Positions 1 to 6,227 of a stretch of DNA of 42,566 nt are shown piece after piece (positions within the stretch are counted from its first letter, which is position 1; each line of letters starts with the position of its first letter). The notes beneath the pieces are model-generated. The model did not search any database, had not been told where the DNA came from, and worked only from the letters and a program-made list of their open reading frames with translations. The position numbers were made by a program, and so were the translations under genes. The stretch comes from a virus (lineage: Duplodnaviria > Heunggongvirae > Uroviricota > Caudoviricetes), in IMG/VR virus record IMGVR_UViG_2529292882_000014, positions 1 to 42,566 of that record. One strand, given 5' to 3'.

Positions 1-1158
1 ATGCTCACCGTTAAGCAGATTGAAGCAGCAAAGCCGAAAGAAAAACCATACCGCCTACTCGATGGTAATGGCCTGTACCTTTATGTCCCTGTGTCAGGGA
101 AAAAGGTATGGCAGCTTCGCTACAAGATTGACGGTAAGGAGAAAATCCTGACCGTCGGAAAATATCCGCTTATGACTTTGCAAGAGGCAAGGGATAAAGC
201 ATGGACTGCGAGGAAAGACATCTCGGTTGGCATCGATCCGGTAAAGGCGAAAAAGGCTTCGTCTAACAACAATTCCTTTAGCGCCATTTACAAGGAATGG
301 TACGAGCACAAGAAGCAAGTCTGGTCAGTAGGCTATGCAAATGAACTTGCAAAAATGTTTGATGACGACATTTTACCCATCATCGGCGGTCTTGAAATTC
401 AGGATATTGAGCCGATGCAACTACTGGAAGTAATCCGCAGATTTGAAGATCGCGGTGCAATGGAGCGAGCAAATAAAGCCCGCAGAAGATGCGGCGAGGT
501 TTTCCGTTACGCTATTGTCACTGGTAGGGCTAAATATAACCCGGCACCTGACCTTGCTGACGCCATGAAGGGATACCGCAAGAAGAACTTCCCGTTTCTT
601 CCTGCAGACCAGATCCCTGCATTCAACAAAGCACTGGCAACATTTTCAGGGAGCATCGTATCGCTCATTGCGACTAAAGTTTTGCGCTACACAGCCCTAA
701 GAACGAAAGAGCTTCGCTCCATGCTATGGAAGAACGTCGATTTTGAAAACAGGATTATCACCATCGACGCCAGTGTGATGAAGGGTCGAAAAATTCATGT
801 GGTTCCTATGTCAGACCAGGTGATTGAACTTCTCACTACGCTAAGCTCAATCACTAAACCAGTGTCAGAGTTTGTTTTTGCCGGGCGCAACGATAAGAAG
901 AAGCCAATTTGCGAGAACGCTGTACTGCTTGTGATCAAACAAATCGGCTATGAAGGTCTGGAAAGCGGTCACGGATTCAGGCATGAATTCAGCACGATTA
1001 TGAACGAGCACGAATGGCCTGCTGACGCTATTGAAGTGCAACTGGCACATGCCAACGGCGGATCTGTGCGCGGGATTTACAACCACGCTCAGTATCTCGA
1101 TAAGCGCAGAGAAATGATGCAGTGGTGGGCGGATTGGCTTGATGAAAAGGTGAAGTGA
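1..1158 (+). CDS. int: Tyrosine integrase, P4/IntS type
   Basis: 385 aa; N-terminus MLTVKQIEAAKPKEKPYRLLDGNGLYLYV typical of P4-family integrases; C-terminal catalytic region with HGFRH and terminal Y-containing motif. Confidence 0.9.
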   Translation: MLTVKQIEAAKPKEKPYRLLDGNGLYLYVPVSGKKVWQLRYKIDGKEKILTVGKYPLMTLQEARDKAWTARKDISVGIDPVKAKKASSNNNSFSAIYKEWYEHKKQVWSVGYANELAKMFDDDILPIIGGLEIQDIEPMQLLEVIRRFEDRGAMERANKARRRCGEVFRYAIVTGRAKYNPAPDLADAMKGYRKKNFPFLPADQIPAFNKALATFSGSIVSLIATKVLRYTALRTKELRSMLWKNVDFENRIITIDASVMKGRKIHVVPMSDQVIELLTTLSSITKPVSEFVFAGRNDKKKPICENAVLLVIKQIGYEGLESGHGFRHEFSTIMNEHEWPADAIEVQLAHANGGSVRGIYNHAQYLDKRREMMQWWADWLDEKVK

Positions 1159-1190
1159 TCAGCCTCAACCACAATCGAATAGCGCAAAGC

Positions 1191-1220
1191 CTTGCAATCC
1201 AGTGCAAGACTTTGTTTTTC
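1191..1220 (+). terminator. Putative rho-independent terminator downstream of int
   Basis: Stem CTTGCA / TGCAAG with 6-nt loop, followed by ACTTTGTTTTTC. Confidence 0.4.
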
Positions 1221-1535
1221 TAAGTTTTTCTCACATCACCGCACAATAATCAAACTAACCATAACACTCTTCGTTGATAATGACCTGACGGATATCATCA
1301 TGTACGTGACTGAGATTGGAGCAATAAGGCTCTTGTCGATTGACACACTATCTTCAACTAGTTCTGCTGCTGGAGATAGAAGCCCATAGTGCACTTACGA
1401 TAAAATACTGTGCGAGAACACAATATAATCATAGTAAAAATCAGATCAACTTCAAAACACGCTGCTTATCCATTGATCAACAGAATCATGCTGTTAAAAT
1501 TAATCCTATTACTACACTTAACTTAGGTATCTTTA

Positions 1536-2576
1536 ATGTCTATAAGAAATGGAAATCGTCTAGAATTCCTAGACTCTTTGCGTGGACTTGCAGCCCTGAT
1601 GGTTGCATGTGCACATTTCATAGAGCGAACACCATTGCATAACAGTTTTTTATTTAAGCATGTTAACTTTGGTCAGGTTGGTGTTGTTTGCTTCTTTGTG
1701 TTAAGTGGCATGGTAATACCTTACAGCCTAAAGGAAGGGAAAAGAGCGATATCCGGGTTCATTATATCAAGGTTTTTTAGACTATATCCCGCTTACTGGT
1801 TTTCAGTATTTCTGGCGGCCTTTACTTTTTTGTTTGTAACTCATAGACCACTTGATATAAGAACTCTGTTGTCTAATATTACCATGCTTCAATCTTTACT
1901 GAGATCTCCAGATATGTTTGGTGTTTATTGGACGCTAATAATTGAGTTGTTCTTCTATGCTTCCTGTGCGTTTCTTTTCAAAGTAAATTTATTAAAGAGT
2001 AAGGTTTCTTTATTTTTAATTTCTATAGGACTTATTGCAACCGCTCTTGCTTTCTCATACGTGAGATTCGTTCTTGATAAAAAAGTTCCTGTGGCAATAC
2101 CGCTAGCTATGTCATTAATGTTCTTTGGTAGCTTATGGCGTTCAGTGAGCATTGGGATTGCATCGAGATCAGAAAGAAATATGTGCATTGTATTTTTAAT
2201 AACATTCCTAGTGGCGATTGCTCCGATTTGCTTAATGTCCTACAATAAAGACTATGGGCATGGGGAAAATGCTTCCTCCTATATTGCTAGCTATCTTACA
2301 GGCATAGTATTGACGCTATTGCTCACTACACGGGTAAAATTGAATGTAGGATTATTGGTTTTCCTGGGATCGATAAGTTACTCTGTATACTTGATTCACC
2401 CATTCTTTTTAGAGATTGTATCTGTCAGTATAGACATGGACACAGATTTTAATTTTATTATTTTTGTTTTATACCTATTAGCTACGATCGCACTAGCAAC
2501 TATTTCTTATAAGGTAATTGAAAAACCATCTATAAATATAGGTCACAGGCTTAGGAAGATCGCACTAGCAAGCTGA
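1536..2576 (+). CDS. Acyltransferase family 3 (AT3) integral membrane protein, Oac-like O-antigen acetyltransferase candidate
   Basis: 346 aa, multiple hydrophobic segments; N-terminal motif RLEFLDSLRGLAALMVACAHF typical of AT3 acyltransferases; about 33% GC, adjacent to int and tailspike as in serotype-converting phages. Confidence 0.8.
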   Translation: MSIRNGNRLEFLDSLRGLAALMVACAHFIERTPLHNSFLFKHVNFGQVGVVCFFVLSGMVIPYSLKEGKRAISGFIISRFFRLYPAYWFSVFLAAFTFLFVTHRPLDIRTLLSNITMLQSLLRSPDMFGVYWTLIIELFFYASCAFLFKVNLLKSKVSLFLISIGLIATALAFSYVRFVLDKKVPVAIPLAMSLMFFGSLWRSVSIGIASRSERNMCIVFLITFLVAIAPICLMSYNKDYGHGENASSYIASYLTGIVLTLLLTTRVKLNVGLLVFLGSISYSVYLIHPFFLEIVSVSIDMDTDFNFIIFVLYLLATIALATISYKVIEKPSINIGHRLRKIALAS

Positions 2577-2739
2577 CATATGACATGAATCCCCAGCTTA
2601 GTTCTGGGGATATTTTCTGGTTATATAATACAATCCGAACTTACACCGAGAGCAAAAATCAATTATATAAGCATACTGTATCATTCATATTACTTTTACG
2701 CTAGGCTCAAGTATCCAATGATCAATAACAGACAAAAAA

Positions 2740-2759
2740 TACTGTATGTGTATACAGAG
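2740..2759. promoter_or_regulatory. LexA (SOS) box-like palindrome
   Basis: TACTGTATGTGTATACAGAG matches the CTGT-N8-ACAG SOS box pattern with an AT-rich spacer. Confidence 0.35.
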
Positions 2760-2905
2760 TCAGTGATATTTTTTCTGCTGCTCAATGAGCATTTCCGATC
2801 TTCCCACTTCTAAATTTATCCTCATGATGTTATTATCATTAAATTTATTTTAGGGGTAGTCACATGAGATATATTGCATTGTTTTTCTTTGCTCTTTCAC
2901 TGTAG

Positions 2906-3184
2906 ATGAATTGGACAATAAAAATGATAAAGTATAGAGCTGGTATAGATGGTTTAAGAGCAGTCGCTGTTGTGATGTTTCACGCTTTCCCAAGCGCATT
3001 TTCTGGAGAGTTCAATGGGTTTGATTTATTTTTCATAATATCTAGCCTTTTAATTTCAAGTATTATTTTTAAAAATTTAAATAGCGGTAAATTTTCTTTT
3101 TCCGATTTTTACTTAAGAAGGATTAAGCGGATTTTTACACTCTTACTCAGATCATATATAAGATTAGATTGCAAGTCTAGTTAG
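2906..3184 (+). pseudogene. Truncated N-terminal fragment of a second AT3 (OafA/OatA-like) acyltransferase
   Basis: 92-aa ORF with the AT3 N-terminal signature (GIDGLRAVAVVMFHAF ... FYLRRIKRIF) ending prematurely; the transmembrane core is absent. Confidence 0.5.
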
Positions 3185-3268
3185 TGGTTGGCTGAATAAT
3201 TTTCTCAATTCGTTGATTTGAAGCGTAAATATATTTTTAACCTTAAACCTTATTAAAAGGAAAATGCA

Positions 3269-3964
3269 ATGAAGTCAAAACAAACAAATAGAAAGTCTCA
3301 AGCAAATAAATATTTGGCAATGCTGTTTATTCTGATTGCAATAGTTATTATAGTATTGTCTGTTCGTTCAATTAGAAATTATTTATCTCAAAAAAAAGTT
3401 AACGACTTTCAGGCTGTGATGCTAGATTTTAAAAAAATGAATGCTAATCAAGCTGACGGCGACATTGTGGTTTATGGCGACTCGCTCATACAAGGAATGT
3501 CACCATATGGGTTAAACTTTAAATATGTTAATATGGGGGTCGGAGGATACTCTATACATCAGATCCTAACTCTATCAGAAAATTATGGGGCGTCTGGATA
3601 TAAAGCTGCGATAATTGAAGGTGGAGTTAACGATGCGATGGGTGCGAAAACCGAAGAGGAAATATTTGATGATTATGACAAACTGCTTAAGAGTGTATCA
3701 AAGGTTGATAATATTTATGCATTAAAAGTTTTGCCAATCATAAGCGGGGCAAGAAAAGACGTAGACCATGTCAATTCAAGAATAAGCATGATTAACTCTA
3801 TTATTGATAGAACATGTAGTCGCATAGTTAACTGCAATATAATAGAAGTTCCTGCAGATTTTTTATCTGATAAAAAATCTGAATTGTACTTTGATGATGG
3901 AGTGCATTTAAATAAAAATGGCTATGCCGTTTGGATGAGAGAGATTAATAAACATGTGAAGTAA
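3269..3964 (+). CDS. Membrane-anchored SGNH/GDSL hydrolase-fold protein
   Basis: 231 aa; one N-terminal TM helix (LAMLFILIAIVIIVLSV); SGNH blocks VVYGDSLIQG (I), NMGVGGYS (II), EGGVNDA (III), DDGVHLNKNGY (V); SD AAGGAAA upstream. Confidence 0.75.
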   Translation: MKSKQTNRKSQANKYLAMLFILIAIVIIVLSVRSIRNYLSQKKVNDFQAVMLDFKKMNANQADGDIVVYGDSLIQGMSPYGLNFKYVNMGVGGYSIHQILTLSENYGASGYKAAIIEGGVNDAMGAKTEEEIFDDYDKLLKSVSKVDNIYALKVLPIISGARKDVDHVNSRISMINSIIDRTCSRIVNCNIIEVPADFLSDKKSELYFDDGVHLNKNGYAVWMREINKHVK

Positions 3965-3969
3965 AAGAT

Positions 3970-3990
3970 GGCCGCATTGCGGCCTTTTTC
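3970..3990. terminator. Bidirectional rho-independent terminator between the convergent SGNH gene and tailspike
   Basis: GGCCGCATTGCGGCC hairpin followed by TTTTT on the plus strand and a T-run on the minus strand. Confidence 0.5.
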
Positions 3991-6227
3991 TACCAGGAAG
4001 CATCAATGTAAAATATTGGTGAGGCTGTAGTAGATCCATTAATTGTTATCGACCCGGTTGATGCGCTTATTGTTGCCATCGCCATACCGTAAGATATTCC
4101 ATCAGCAGTGAACGGTACAGGGACATTTTTTGTTACTGTTGGTCTACACCACCTTGGCAGCGTTAGAACAGTATTACCATTCGCAAATGAAGTGGCTGCC
4201 AGTTTAATATTAATTGAATTGGCAGTTAAACTTGACGGTGCCTGTACTGTTACGTTTGTTCCAGCCCACCATTGAACAGCTGCTCTTGGCGTGTAATCAA
4301 CACGCGACCACCAGTCGATAATGGCAGAGCAGATAATTTCCGCATACAGACGATACCCTAACTGGCTTTGGTGAATGTCATCACGCAGAAGTGGGTCGTA
4401 TTGCGTATTGAAATACTCTGGATATGGGGCCGGGAGCTGGTGAGTTGTTGTTACACAAATGACGTTATTGCCATATTTCATCATCTGGCGTTTACCAGCT
4501 TCTCGCAACTCTGCGACACCGTCGTAGTTAGAAGATGGCTGGCCAGCCCCTCCAATAAATGACTGGCTATACCACATCCACGGCTCAACCCAAACAGGGA
4601 TACGACCAAGGCCATTGCAATATAAGACAAACTCATCTATCAATGACGCCATATAATCGCCGTTTTGGTTTGCCTGCCCTTCGTTAGTTCCGGCAACCAT
4701 AATAACGATGTAAGCATCACCCGGCCCCTGAGCCTTCAGGAGATCTAACTGTTGCCTCATTGTCTGTCCGGCAACTGCCTTGTTTACAATGCTATGTGAA
4801 CGGTGGCCGTTCGCTCCATCCATTAATTGCGGAATGTACGAGCTGAACGCGGAAATGAAATCCTCAGCTGTACTATCACCGTGGATAAGGATATTAAGTG
4901 GAGGCTTACCGTGCACGCCATTATCAGAGGTGTAGCTGCATAATCCAGTTACACGCGCAGAACCTCCAGATGCCGTGGTCAGTGCAACAAACCCAACTTC
5001 GTATACATCCCCTACATCAGCAGTATCAAAGGGCAAACGTATCCCAACGCCATTCATCGTTATCTGCGCCCAGTTTTTACCTTGCAGTGATACGCCAACG
5101 GTTGCTTTGCCCGGGGCGTACGACAGTAAACCTCCTGGCAGCGGGAATGGAGTTCCTTCTGCTACTGGACCACCAATTGGTTTCTGTCTATAAGACCACT
5201 GTGTAGCACCTGGTGCCCCATAGAACATCATCCAACCACCAGAGCATCGCAGAACAATCCCAACTTCTGAGGCGGCCTGAGATTCCATACGAATATGTGC
5301 AGAAATATGCTCTCCAATATCTATTGGTGCGAACAGGCCTGTTGTACGGTTAGTAGTTAAGGGGAAGATAGCTGCGCTATCTGAGGATATGGTGACTTCA
5401 CCTTCATAGAAGAACGTGTCACCATTTATGGAATAAACTTTACAATCTGACCATTCCACTCGCTTCATGCGAATAGGGTTTCGGTTGAGGATAGCCTGCT
5501 TAGCCAGGTAATCCACTTCCCCACCGGTTGCTTTAAAGTTCAGGTGCGTAAATTCAAACGTACCCTCCCCCTCGTACTGCAACGATTTAAACAGTGAGTA
5601 CAGATCACTGTCGAATCTCAGGGTGACATTTTTATCAATGATTACTTTACTGTTCGCAAGGAAAGAAGCGTTAGCAGCTGTAGACGGTACGGTGTACACC
5701 ATCTGATTTTTTGAATGATTAGAGAAGTAAACATACCCGTAGGTCGCAACACTATCGCGCCATGCCTGGACTACGTTAGAATTAACATAGCTTGGGATTT
5801 TTGTGATCGAATGCAAAACAAGGTCTTCCTGTGAGATAGCTCCATTTACCAGATTAACACCGCCTTGAGATGCAAGATCTTGCCTGAGTTGGTCAGGGTC
5901 ATACTTCAACACATTCGGAAAATAGAACTGCTGCGAACCATACGCATCATAAACAGCCATAGAATGCCCTTGCACAGTTACGAACTTGGCAATTTGTCCG
6001 TTATATACCGGATATCCAGCAGCGTTAATGATGATTGGTTGCGAAACAGGAACGTGAGAACCGTCTTCGTTCTCCACATAAACCTGAATCTGGTTTTCAG
6101 GATTTACCGGGTCAGTGTCAATTTTACCGATATAAATTTTTCCATTGGCAACCGCTTTAAAAGAACGCGCCATAGTGAAGAGTTGCGAAGGCATCGATAC
6201 GATCACATTGGCTGTAATGTCTGTCAT
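3990..6227 (-). CDS. Tailspike protein with P22-type head-binding N-terminal domain and an internal SGNH-esterase-like motif set
   Basis: 745 aa; first ~110 aa ([58 protein letters not shown]...) closely resemble P22 gp9 N-terminus; later [20 protein letters not shown] and [10 protein letters not shown] resemble SGNH blocks I, III and V. Confidence 0.9.

Follow-up and report, generated by a model that had tools for sequence, protein, structure and literature searches.

We found that the interval between the integrase and tailspike genes of a P22-like Escherichia coli prophage is almost certainly a mosaic of two O-antigen-modification cassettes, in which a 92-aa ORF is a deletion pseudogene of a fused AT3-SGNH gene and the 231-aa SGNH ORF that follows it is a separate, intact gene. 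The window, by which we mean the whole stretch of 42,566 nucleotides that was analysed, includes this O-antigen-modification region from int to the tailspike gene; in E. coli the prophage is inserted at tRNA-Arg, beside yfdC. Related loci used for comparison are given as L numbers. The region contains the following features:

1–1158, plus strand: prophage integrase IntS, annotated in identical E. coli loci
1169–1411, minus strand: internally deleted remnant of a HumD/UmuD-like (Peptidase_S24) gene, from matches to L020 and L014
1406–1530, unstranded: humD-moron intergenic region, copy A, aligning to L004 405–521 (direct repeat D1)
1536–2576, plus strand: intact Oac-like, AT3-only O-acetyltransferase gene, 346 aa (AT3-346; PF01757, 106 bits, full length; PHROG 3333, "O-acetyltransferase")
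2589–2611, plus strand: intrinsic-terminator-like hairpin closing the AT3-346 cassette
2713–2866, unstranded: humD-moron intergenic region, copy B, aligning to L004 381–530
2924–3135, plus strand: 5' relic of an AT3-SGNH gene, 70 codons with TMH1, TMH2 and RxxR, by homology to L004
3130–3135, plus strand: deletion junction with 6-bp microhomology (GATTTT in the window, GAT(A)TTT in L004)
3132–3221, plus strand: 3' relic, in which the lost PF19040-type SGNH domain is left as its final 29 codons and stop, from the original-frame translation compared with the L004 C-terminus
3269–3964, plus strand: independent intact SGNH/GDSL gene, 231 aa (Pfam, homologue alignment, AlphaFold, Foldseek, dN/dS)
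3970–3984, unstranded: bidirectional terminator hairpin separating the SGNH gene from the convergent tailspike gene
3990–6227, minus strand: P22-type tailspike gene, head-binding domain (residues 1–113) and receptor-binding part (Pfam)

Comparison with the related loci showed that cassette 1 (about 1169–2649) consists of the humD-like remnant and the intact Oac-like AT3-only gene, and that cassette 2 (about 2713–3990) descended from an L004-like arrangement. In L004, a promoter and LexA box are followed by a 660-aa AT3-SGNH(PF19040) gene, a 228-aa stand-alone SGNH gene, a terminator and a convergent tailspike gene. Two matches make up the humD-like remnant, window 1–1282 (int and the 3' end of the gene) with L020 1–1280 and window 1280–1411 (the 5' part) with L014 282–411; the intact gene encodes 129 aa in relatives and is annotated HumD in strain SRY149. 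Copy A of the humD-moron intergenic region has a degenerate SOS box (CTGTGCGAGAACACAA, 1407–1422) and a promoter-like site (1473–1500), while copy B holds the start of a second, deleted humD-like gene, an intact LexA box (CTGTATGTGTATACAG, 2742–2757) and the native upstream region of the decayed gene. A LexA-type box occupies the equivalent position in L004, L014, L020, L010, L035 and L037.

The same 2.8 kb was 99.9–100% identical in three complete E. coli chromosomes, and the arrangement recurred in IMG/VR and metagenome contigs as well as in a variant, L038 (95.5% identity over 4.8 kb, with a divergence of only 0.4–3.6% inside the module), ruling out an assembly or sequencing artefact. The allele is rare, being found in 3 of 5,426 complete E. 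coli genomes. In the phage collection, nucleotide searches with window 1200–4000 and 2600–4000 returned no matches. The SGNH-family alignment found no relative among genomes sampled at one per species, from which we take the gene to be strain-level prophage cargo.

The AT3 gene of cassette 1, described as intact in the sequence-only reading of this DNA, is indeed so: its product spans positions 2–325 of the 326-position PF01757 profile, and its translation contains R16-X10-H27, CFFVLSG and R79FFR82 (R79-x-x-R82). It thus has what marks an Oac-like AT3-only protein, a full AT3 domain with the three motifs and no C-terminal domain. The gene sits in an L037-like cassette (1280–2649) with 81–83% nucleotide identity to the cassettes of L035, L036 and L037, and the homology to L035 and L037 stops at 2611 and 2649. 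Among the matches listed, all 120 homologues (229–400 aa) carry an AT3 domain alone. Its identity to the AT3 lineage found elsewhere in fusion with the SGNH family is only about 28%. Since AT3-346 has its own terminator, it does not form one operon with the SGNH gene; with homologues in L036 and L037 that have no SGNH gene, it was rejected as an obligate SGNH partner.

In cassette 2, the two ORFs lie where they had been reported, 84 bp apart, the open frame of the first running from 2906 or 2924 to 3184. A two-piece alignment, in which window 2916–3135 corresponds to L004 693–922 (83% nucleotide identity over the relic) and window 3130–4100 to L004 2593–3568, confirmed the proposal that a fused AT3-SGNH gene had decayed here and that the 92-aa ORF is what is left of it. 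About 1,670 bp (L004 923–2592) are therefore missing, in place of the roughly 0.9 kb first estimated. Mapping the deletion by alignment to an intact relative, as had been suggested, placed the missing stretch wholly inside the 660-aa gene, which ends upstream of the SGNH ORF; the alignment shows that the lost part corresponds to residues about 74–630 of the AT3-SGNH protein. The deletion is out of frame (codon phase at the junction is 3 in the window and 2 in L004), and past the junction the 92-aa ORF continues out of frame to a TAG at 3182–3184. The L004 protein has PF19040 at residues 412–649 (Pfam), and the 3' relic of this domain, in which two in-frame stops have arisen, keeps the region of block V, SDH(I) (FLHSYSDHI*D*IASLVSGWLNNFLNSLI* in the window compared with YLYSYSDHIPDYYATIVGDGLNKFLNSLD* in L004). 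The promoter region was spared by the deletion, so that the SGNH gene is predicted to be still transcribed through the relic.

The 92-aa ORF shares 74% amino acid identity with residues 1–78 of the L004 protein and 52–53% with the N-termini of Salmonella phage O-antigen acetylases, e.g. BTP1 GtrC (52%). Against Pfam Acyl_transf_3 (PF01757) it aligned to profile positions 2–81 of 326 with 20.8 bits, below the gathering score of 31 bits. The AT3 N-terminal signature that had been noted is present, and the "one and a half" TM helices originally counted prove to be slightly more, namely TMH1, TMH2 and the RxxR start of TMH3. Fused AT3-SGNH proteins of the OafA/OafB type are marked by the motifs R/K-X10-H in TMH1 and GG-F/Y-xGV-D before TMH2 (PMC7448272). 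In the relic, a 9-bp deletion has turned R-X10-H into R-X7-H, and GGFxGVD (GGFIGVD) now reads GEFNGFD. The Gly-to-Glu change falls on the residue corresponding to OafA G34; in OafA, a G34A substitution leaves 1.4% of the activity (PMC7448272). An OafA/OafB-type protein has a complete 10-TM AT3 domain, both N-terminal motifs and an in-frame 11th TM helix with PF19040; none of these is encoded intact by the 92-aa ORF and the DNA downstream of it.

We followed the evolution of the relic in the L038 allele, because most of its divergence from L004 is older than the deletion and the dN/dS against L004 (0.23, 29 differences) is uninformative for that reason. Between the window and L038, the relic had 4 differences in 261 bp, all non-synonymous, and intergenic DNA had 16 in 790 bp, compared with 8 in 1,737 bp for the AT3-346 and SGNH genes (Fisher p = 3e-4 for relic plus intergenic DNA against the two intact genes; p = 0.06 for the relic alone). 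The 92-aa ORF evolves at the intergenic rate, and it no longer has motif residues essential in OafA. PGAP annotates no gene over the relic in the identical E. coli loci. When the 92-aa ORF was the query, a homology search yielded chiefly short AT3 fragments at contig ends and did not return the parent gene, which was located through the neighbourhood of an SGNH homologue; the short ORF itself was present only in near-identical copies of its own allele. The 92-aa ORF thus represents an OafB-like AT3-SGNH gene reduced to a pseudogene that is unable to function as a member of that family, and such gene decay is ordinary turnover in the accessory (moron) region of a prophage.

The 231-aa ORF has the single hydrophobic stretch and the complete SGNH blocks with which it had been credited. 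It matched Lipase_GDSL_2 (PF13472) at 52.8 bits, compared with a cut-off of 32.9 bits, and Lipase_GDSL at 30.1 bits. Blocks I (G70-D71-S72), II (G90/92/93), III (GGxND; G118-G119-x-N121-D122) and V (D210-x-x-H213) are all invariant in 26 homologues. The stretch at about residues 14–35, a predicted N-terminal membrane anchor, has five K/R residues before it and four after, a weak charge bias, and the juxtamembrane helix is conserved (F47, Q48, K55, Q61, D63, G64). Two invariant cysteines (C183 and C189), together with the in-frame fusion of family members behind a 10-TM AT3 domain, argue for a periplasmic location. The AlphaFold model (pLDDT 88) adopts a three-layer alpha/beta/alpha SGNH fold, which Foldseek matched with probability 1.00 to PAF acetylhydrolase, sialate O-acetylesterase and OatA-C; by sequence, the closest solved relatives are sialate O-acetylesterases and PAF acetylhydrolases. 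Comparison with solved structures by fold and by sequence did not separate esterase from transferase.

No PF19040 match was found in the 231-aa ORF with Pfam and no BLASTP match to the L004 660-aa protein or BTP1 GtrC, and the SGNH family profile did not detect four PF19040 proteins. These comparisons showed it to be a different gene, of a different SGNH family (PF13472) from the lost domain. In the homologue set, 25 of 28 proteins are 212–231 aa long, the remainder being slightly longer (237 and 245 aa) or truncated, and none is fused; only 11 cluster representatives reached 1e-30 or below in the family search, which gave 8,543 hits at or below 1e-3. Conservation of each ORF as an independent gene had been named as the finding that would speak against a broken gene, and it holds for the SGNH ORF, with its stand-alone homologues, but not for the short ORF. 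The dN/dS of the SGNH gene is 0.15 against L004 and 0.05 against L014. Since the split from L038 it has gained 4 differences in 696 bp, with one amino acid change as against four in the relic, and its rate of change is about a third of that of the relic and intergenic DNA. The promoter region, ribosome-binding site and terminator of the gene are retained. The SGNH gene is thus shown to be intact and under purifying selection.

Genes of this SGNH family were found alone, beside complete AT3-SGNH genes, behind an AT3-only gene and fused to AT3, nearly always convergent with a tailspike gene that usually bears an esterase domain. In L004, 55 bp separate the intact 660-aa gene from the SGNH gene that follows it. 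In L040, an AT3-only gene (377 aa) is followed after 11 bp by a family SGNH gene with its own ribosome-binding site. An AT3 of the L040 lineage (60% identity) is fused in frame to a family SGNH through the anchor helix in a 595-aa ORF, carried by L014–L017, L028 and three complete E. coli genomes, including SRY149. Both halves of the fusion have a low dN/dS (AT3 0.14, SGNH 0.10, at dS 0.2–0.4); its invariant His is kept in L017 and SRY149 and replaced in the L014 lineage (His28Asn), and in L018 the AT3 is frameshifted and the SGNH gene persists. More distant SGNH relatives neighbour an AT3-only gene in L035 and in L033; in the latter, the pair belongs to a polysaccharide-synthesis operon and its stop and start codons overlap. 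In total, AT3 is linked or fused to SGNH in L040, L014–17, L028, L048, L033 and L035, whereas the SGNH gene has no AT3 nearby in L010/L020, L019, L030, L041, L042 and L047, about half of the locus types. In two locus types, L004 and L021/L044, the neighbouring AT3 already has an SGNH domain of its own.

The window tailspike has an SGNH-esterase-like domain at residues about 450–637, with blocks GDS, AG, GTNEG and DDIH in its translation, and is 87% identical to the L005 tailspike, whose N-terminal domain differs. Six locus kinds have a tailspike or tail-fibre gene beside the SGNH gene, and in five of them its product carries a GDSL_2 esterase domain (window/L005/L014/L040; L021/L044; L030; L041; and L047, a T7-like fibre); in the tailspike type of L010/L019/L020 no esterase domain was detectable. 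We looked for shared ancestry between the stand-alone SGNH and either the esterase domains of tailspikes or PF19040 domains and found no signal.

As to function, we favour the SGNH protein being a trans-acting periplasmic acetyl-transfer partner of AT3 proteins, a proposal that we regard as about evenly poised between right and wrong. Its N-terminal helix would anchor the protein in the inner membrane and leave the catalytic domain on the periplasmic side, and the protein would perform the second step of O-antigen O-acetylation: acetyl carried across the membrane by AT3 would be held on Ser72 and passed to an O-antigen sugar. Acting in trans, the SGNH protein would thereby match the role played in cis by the C-terminal domains of OafA, OafB and OatA, and the role of PatB for PatA. 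The likely donor here would be the 346-aa AT3-only protein; originally the part may have fallen to the AT3 domain encoded by the lost gene, and in other loci a host AT3 may serve. The AT3-only protein WecH can feed the separate SGNH protein PatB, replacing PatA (PMC9558356), and PatB is held beside PatA by an N-terminal TM helix (PMC12148441). A stand-alone partner for AT3, which the sequence-only reading had offered as its second choice, is a better account than a broken gene and gains support from the split and fused relatives. Taken as a whole, the locus history together with the transferase mechanism is an explanation that we think slightly likelier to be right than wrong.

Several observations bear on such a partnership. 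For it are the split pair of L040, the fusions, the neighbours in L033 and L035, and the Foldseek match to the transferase domain at the OatA C-terminus. Against it are the locus types without AT3, the AT3 proteins with their own SGNH in L004 and L021/L044, and the decay of AT3 neighbours where SGNH persists (the window relic, His28Asn in the L014 lineage, the L018 frameshifts), as well as the AT3-346 homologues without SGNH, the separate terminator, the low identity to the fused lineage and the fact that the nearest solved sequences are acetyl-esterases.

A second explanation, to which we give real but lesser weight, is that the protein is an autonomous periplasmic O-acetyl-esterase that would act on the O-antigen of the lysogen or infected cell, removing O-acetyl groups added by the host. 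The receptor of esterase-type tailspikes would then be destroyed from inside, leading to superinfection exclusion or sparing the progeny adsorption to debris; nearby AT3 genes would be independent modifiers, and the fusions would join two enzymes acting on one polymer. This explanation accommodates the SGNH genes that stand without AT3 in about half of the locus types, their persistence where neighbouring AT3 genes decay, the esterase (GDSL_2) tailspikes or fibres adjoining them in five of six locus kinds, and the canonical SGNH hydrolase blocks with their nearest solved relatives. It is also in line with the resistance of E. coli 4s to the esterase-tailspike phage G7C when O-acetylation is lost (10.1101/2021.06.09.447823). 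However, all characterised AT3-SGNH fusions are transferases, the fusion found here is under purifying selection in both halves, and AT3 and SGNH form a tight operon in L040 and a translationally coupled pair in the biosynthetic cluster of L033. The tailspike association may also be weaker than it appears, as SGNH-type receptor-binding proteins are reportedly common in prophages (PMC13123978), and the L010/L019/L020 tailspike type forms an exception to it. We put forward only tentatively, and would sooner doubt than assert, that with the SGNH protein the phage encodes a periplasmic deacetylase of O-antigen. This "receptor-destroying enzyme from within" would remove the O-acetyl groups recognised by the esterase-type tailspike of the phage itself. 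If so, lysogenic conversion and superinfection exclusion would proceed by deacetylation rather than by group addition and, with a neighbouring AT3, acetyl groups could move between positions. We know of no description of O-antigen conversion by deacetylation.

That the SGNH ORF is instead a decaying passenger with no current function, kept only because the deletion is recent, is very improbable: its former operon partner is dead and the allele is rare (3 of 5,426 genomes), but the ORF is full length with every catalytic residue intact, its dN/dS is 0.05–0.15, it changes at about a third of the relic and intergenic rate since the L038 split, and its promoter region, ribosome-binding site and terminator have been kept. 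The idea that the 92-aa and 231-aa ORFs once formed the opposite ends of a single AT3-SGNH gene that lost about 0.9 kb internally is refuted by the two-piece L004 alignment and has a negligible chance of being correct, for although the order of AT3 N-terminus, TM helix and SGNH mimics a fused protein and AT3 fusions to this SGNH family exist, the relic N-terminus shares 74% identity with a 660-aa PF19040-type protein, and the 3' end of the gene for that protein is still present at 3132–3221, upstream of SGNH, L004 has both genes complete and adjacent, the relic bears the GG-F-xGV-D type motif of PF19040-type fusions, and the AT3 fused to the SGNH family belongs to another lineage, AT3-only in type, which has a long TMH1-2 loop and no detectable similarity to the relic.

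One tight, membrane-anchored SGNH family occurs in all three relations to AT3 (orphan, adjacent and fused) in O-antigen loci of Enterobacterales phages. The published scheme has only MBOAT with a separate SGNH, and AT3 fused to SGNH (PMC12148441), and whether AT3-only proteins need an SGNH partner is a stated open question (PMC9558356); a family with split, fused and orphan forms falls into a gap in that scheme. A natural comparison is offered by the SRY149 prophage, whose integrase is 99% and tailspike 97% identical to those of the window: at the same attachment site, it has an AT3::SGNH fusion, as against an AT3-only gene, a dead AT3-SGNH gene and a separate SGNH gene. Were the protein an esterase, it would represent a new kind of serotype conversion, tied to esterase tailspikes. 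The results also affect the annotation of O-serotype, phage host range and prophage genes labelled "hypothetical GDSL lipase".

Among known systems, Oac of Shigella phage Sf6 resembles AT3-346 in kind (AT3-only, with R-X10-H, FFxxSG and RxxR) and in position by int, but AT3-346 is of another lineage and is accompanied by a stand-alone SGNH gene; to our knowledge Sf6 has no such gene. With G7C gp63.1 and the SGNH-type receptor-binding proteins of Klebsiella prophages, the window tailspike shares SGNH blocks, pointing to an O-acetylated receptor, whereas the stand-alone SGNH is not a virion protein and has no detectable relation to tailspike esterase domains. The C-terminal domain of S. aureus OatA, although not reached from the 231-aa SGNH by sequence-profile searches, is matched by Foldseek at 21–22% identity with a TM-score of 0.74 normalised to the target; both have the canonical three-part oxyanion hole described for SaOatA-C (PMC9487903), and the 595-aa fused relatives share the AT3, TM helix and SGNH layout. 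OatA differs in acting on Gram-positive peptidoglycan and in being always fused. OafB (family II GtrC) and OafA of Salmonella are the kind of gene of which the relic is the N-terminus (52% identity to BTP1 GtrC, 74% to L004): like the relic, such a gene sits in a P22-like phage between int and its tailspike gene, and the C-terminus lost here was PF19040-type. Here, however, that gene is dead, and the surviving SGNH has a canonical GxND block III and a PF13472 match, whereas OafA and OafB have no evident GxND (PMC7448272). PatA/PatB, with AlgI/AlgX and DltB/DltD, provides the parallel of a separate SGNH protein with a single N-terminal membrane helix (predicted here) that is proposed to receive its acyl group from a polytopic membrane protein (PMC12148441); the 231-aa ORF differs from PatB (DUF459) in having no PF04311 match, its candidate partner is an AT3 rather than an MBOAT protein, and its proposed target is O-antigen in a phage setting.

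The window was found to be an E. coli P22-like prophage integrated at tRNA-Arg, adjoining yfdC. G+C content was 27–36% across its int-to-tailspike block, compared with 46–47% for the phage; such low G+C is common in O-antigen-modification cargo. The ORF positions and the 84-bp gap described from the sequence alone were confirmed, and the interval from the humD-like remnant to the tailspike gene comprised the features below, with Pfam supplying the domain matches:

1169-1411, minus strand: HumD/UmuD-like (Peptidase_S24) remnant with an internal deletion
1406-1530: intergenic copy A, with a degenerate SOS box at 1407-1422
1536-2576: AT3-346, 346 aa, with a full AT3 (membrane acyltransferase) domain, 106 bits
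2713-2866: intergenic copy B, with an intact CTGT-N8-ACAG LexA-type box at 2742-2757, CTGTATGTGTATACAG
2906-3184: 92-aa ORF (the relic), with an AT3 match below threshold that covers just the first 81 positions of the profile
3269-3964: SGNH ORF, 231 aa, matching both Lipase_GDSL_2 and Lipase_GDSL
3990-6227, minus strand: tailspike, 745 aa, P22 head-binding domain and a weak GDSL_2 match

Three complete E. coli chromosomes carried the 2.8 kb that spans the relic and the SGNH ORF at 99.9–100% identity. PGAP labelled four genes there, IntS, "acyltransferase family protein", "SGNH/GDSL hydrolase family protein" and "phage tailspike protein", and left the 92-aa ORF without an annotated gene.

Salmonella phage O-antigen acetylases shared 52–53% identity at their N-terminus with the 92-aa ORF; one of them is BTP1 GtrC, a 640-aa AT3-SGNH protein encoded between int and the tailspike gene. 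The nearest homologue of the SGNH ORF, P0002 (76% identity), was encoded in six contigs (L004-L009), 55 bp 3' of a complete 660-aa AT3 plus PF19040-SGNH gene and convergent with a tailspike gene. The window aligned to L004 as two pieces: 2916-3135 with L004 693-922 (83%), covering the start of the 660-aa gene, and 3130-4100 with L004 2593-3568 (77%), running from the end of that gene through the spacer and the entire SGNH gene into the 3' end of the tailspike gene. L004 923-2592 was therefore absent from the window, a loss of ~1,670 bp rather than the ~0.9 kb first estimated. The junction carried the microhomology GATTTT / GAT(A)TTT and altered the reading frame. In the original frame, window 3132-3221 read FLHSYSDHI*D*IASLVSGWLNNFLNSLI*, for comparison with the C-terminus YLYSYSDHIPDYYATIVGDGLNKFLNSLD* of the L004 660-aa protein. 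Since the C-terminal codons of the decayed gene remain readable here, its own SGNH domain, now lost, sat upstream of the 231-aa ORF. The sequence-only reading was right that a decayed AT3-SGNH gene lies behind the 92-aa ORF, and wrong in taking the 231-aa ORF for its C-terminal part.

What remains of this gene carried further lesions: a 9-bp deletion turned the R/K-X10-H motif into R-X7-H, and GGFIGVD became GEFNGFD, which includes the position equivalent to OafA G34, where G34A retains 1.4% activity (PMC7448272). The window's allele recurred in L038 at 95.5% identity over 4.8 kb, with divergence mostly in the tailspike. Between the two copies the relic had 4 differences in 261 bp, all non-synonymous, and intergenic DNA had 16 in 790 bp, compared with 4 in 1,041 bp for AT3-346 and 4 in 696 bp for the SGNH gene, each with one amino-acid change (relic plus intergenic DNA vs the two intact genes, Fisher p = 3e-4; relic alone, p = 0.06). 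The relic belongs to the OafB-like AT3-SGNH family but survives only as a pseudogene, and gene decay in the window is an ordinary event.

The locus as a whole was mosaic. Window 1-1282 matched L020 across int and into the 3' end of a HumD/UmuD-like gene, and 1280-2649 matched L037 from the 5' part of the humD-like gene through the intergenic region to AT3-346 with its terminator. The humD-like gene was therefore also internally deleted; it was intact (129 aa) in L004, L007, L010, L020, L037 and E. coli SRY149. Only the first few bases of a second humD-like copy were left in the window (~2713-2723). The duplication of the humD-moron intergenic region, taken with the mosaic matches, shows that the AT3-346 cassette came to lie ahead of an L004-like cassette, whose AT3-SGNH gene lost its interior at the same time as, or after, this arrival. 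Copy B and the 3' end were spared by the deletion, from which we infer that transcription into the SGNH gene may still occur. A LexA-type box lay ~20 bp upstream of the humD-like start in every related locus, which raises the question of SOS control over the divergent modification genes.

The tailspike joins its P22 head-binding domain, the only part with a solved relative by sequence, to a receptor-binding part with SGNH esterase blocks (GDS, AG, GTNEG, DDIH; residues ~450-637). In L005 and L014 the same receptor-binding part (87% identity) followed another N-terminal domain, Tail_spike_N, indicating that the module was swapped between phage types. In two metagenome copies otherwise equal to the window (L026 4255-6494 and L029 5722-7961), the tailspike was split into 570-aa and 195-aa ORFs by either a frameshift or a sequencing error. 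L038 2814-4847 was 9.4% divergent from window 3990-6024 in the tailspike, against 0.4–3.6% in the modification block, a step that points to a recombination boundary at the convergent terminator.

The SGNH ORF is an independent gene. Among the 28 homologues found, 25 were 212-231 aa long, two were 237 and 245 aa and two were truncated, with no fusion among them. The sequence-only reading had named conservation of both ORFs as independent genes as evidence against decay; these stand-alone homologues provide it for the SGNH ORF, while homology search recovered the 92-aa ORF only in near-identical copies of the window's allele. A profile search of 1.84 billion representatives gave only 11 clusters at ≤1e-30. 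All four SGNH blocks were invariant in an alignment of 26 members, as were juxtamembrane F47, Q48, K55, Q61, D63 and G64 and cysteines C183 and C189, and dN/dS was 0.15 against L004 and 0.05 against L014. The gene belongs to the SGNH superfamily (PF13472), outside the PF19040 and PatB/DUF459 families, and its phage family, PHROG 14008, carries no function label. Neither BLASTP nor profile searches linked it to the PF19040 domains of OafB-like proteins or to the tailspike esterase domains. An AlphaFold model (pLDDT 88) combined a long N-terminal helix with a standard SGNH fold, closest among solved structures to PAF acetylhydrolases, Bacteroides sialate O-acetylesterases and the OatA C-terminal O-acetyltransferase domain, every one an acetyl-handling enzyme; the SGNH fold alone does not distinguish esterase from transferase (PMC9487903).

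Relatives gathered from IMG/VR, metagenomes, Logan and NCBI, in almost all of which the SGNH gene was convergent with a tailspike or tail-fibre gene, occupied these settings:

(a) SGNH alone: L010/L020, L019, L030, L041, Aeromonas L042, T7-like L047
(b) 3' of a complete AT3-SGNH (PF19040) gene: L004 type, L021/L044 type
(c) 11 bp 3' of an AT3-only gene, with its own ribosome-binding site: L040
(d) fused in frame, via the anchor helix, to the AT3 lineage of L040 (60% identity), 595 aa: L014-L017, L028, three complete E. coli genomes (L048)
(e) window arrangement: window, L026, L029, L038, L039

In the T7-like phage (L047 1656-4408), a more distant SGNH gene (244 aa) adjoined lysis genes and was convergent with a T7-type tail fibre bearing a GDSL_2 esterase domain; an AT3 gene was absent nearby. 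Distant relatives adjoined AT3-only genes in L033 and L035. L033 823-5271 is a non-phage polysaccharide-synthesis operon with overlapping stop and start codons, in which a distant SGNH gene (247 aa) runs into the start of an AT3-only gene (386 aa), itself overlapping a GT4 glycosyltransferase followed by a Wzy-like gene; it is a possible chromosomal two-component AT3 and SGNH system. L035 690-6048 packed four acetyl-handling genes on one contig: an AT3-only gene 89% identical to AT3-346, a signal-peptide SGNH (227 aa, ~26–30% identity to the family), a 639-aa AT3-SGNH (PF19040) gene in convergent orientation and a GDSL_2 protein of 378 aa whose signal peptide is twin-arginine-like.

The 595-aa fusion was labelled as one "acyltransferase family protein" in complete E. 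coli genomes, and purifying selection acts on both halves (dN/dS 0.14 for AT3 and 0.10 for SGNH, at dS 0.2–0.4). The L048 prophage shared the window's attachment site, with integrase 99% and tailspike 97% identical. The invariant His of R-X10-H (residue 28) was kept in L017 and L048. This residue was Asn in the lineage of L014, L015, L016 and L028, with the SGNH half unchanged. L018 held a frameshifted copy or copies of the fused gene.

Such split and fused forms are classical evidence for a functional link between the SGNH and AT3 proteins. Given this pair, and the precedents that AT3-only WecH can feed the separate SGNH transferase PatB (PMC9558356) and that an N-terminal TM helix holds PatB beside PatA (PMC12148441), we favour, with roughly even confidence, a trans-acting second-step acetyltransferase. 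The stand-alone partner that the sequence-only reading offered as its alternative was the better lead. Against a transferase, AT3-346 occurs elsewhere without an SGNH gene, about half of the settings lack an AT3 gene, AT3 already owns an SGNH domain in two, and the SGNH gene persists where AT3 neighbours decay. The main rival, an autonomous periplasmic O-acetylesterase, we regard as possible without being probable. Of the six kinds of locus with a neighbouring tail gene, five encode a GDSL_2 esterase domain in the adjacent tail protein, which agrees with this rival, as does the blocking of the esterase-tailspike phage G7C by loss of O-acetylation (10.1101/2021.06.09.447823); however, receptor-binding proteins of the SGNH type are reportedly common among prophages (PMC13123978), so the weight of the tail association is uncertain.

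AT3-346 itself is an ordinary Oac-like AT3-only gene. A text search of the literature returned no description of an AT3 protein working with a stand-alone SGNH partner, apart from the WecH-PatB substitution and a question posed in a 2022 review (PMC9558356), and the SGNH family offers a convenient experimental system. Two schemes have been published, an MBOAT (another acyl-translocase family) with a separate SGNH protein and an AT3 fused to SGNH (PMC12148441); a separate SGNH working with an AT3 protein would combine both.
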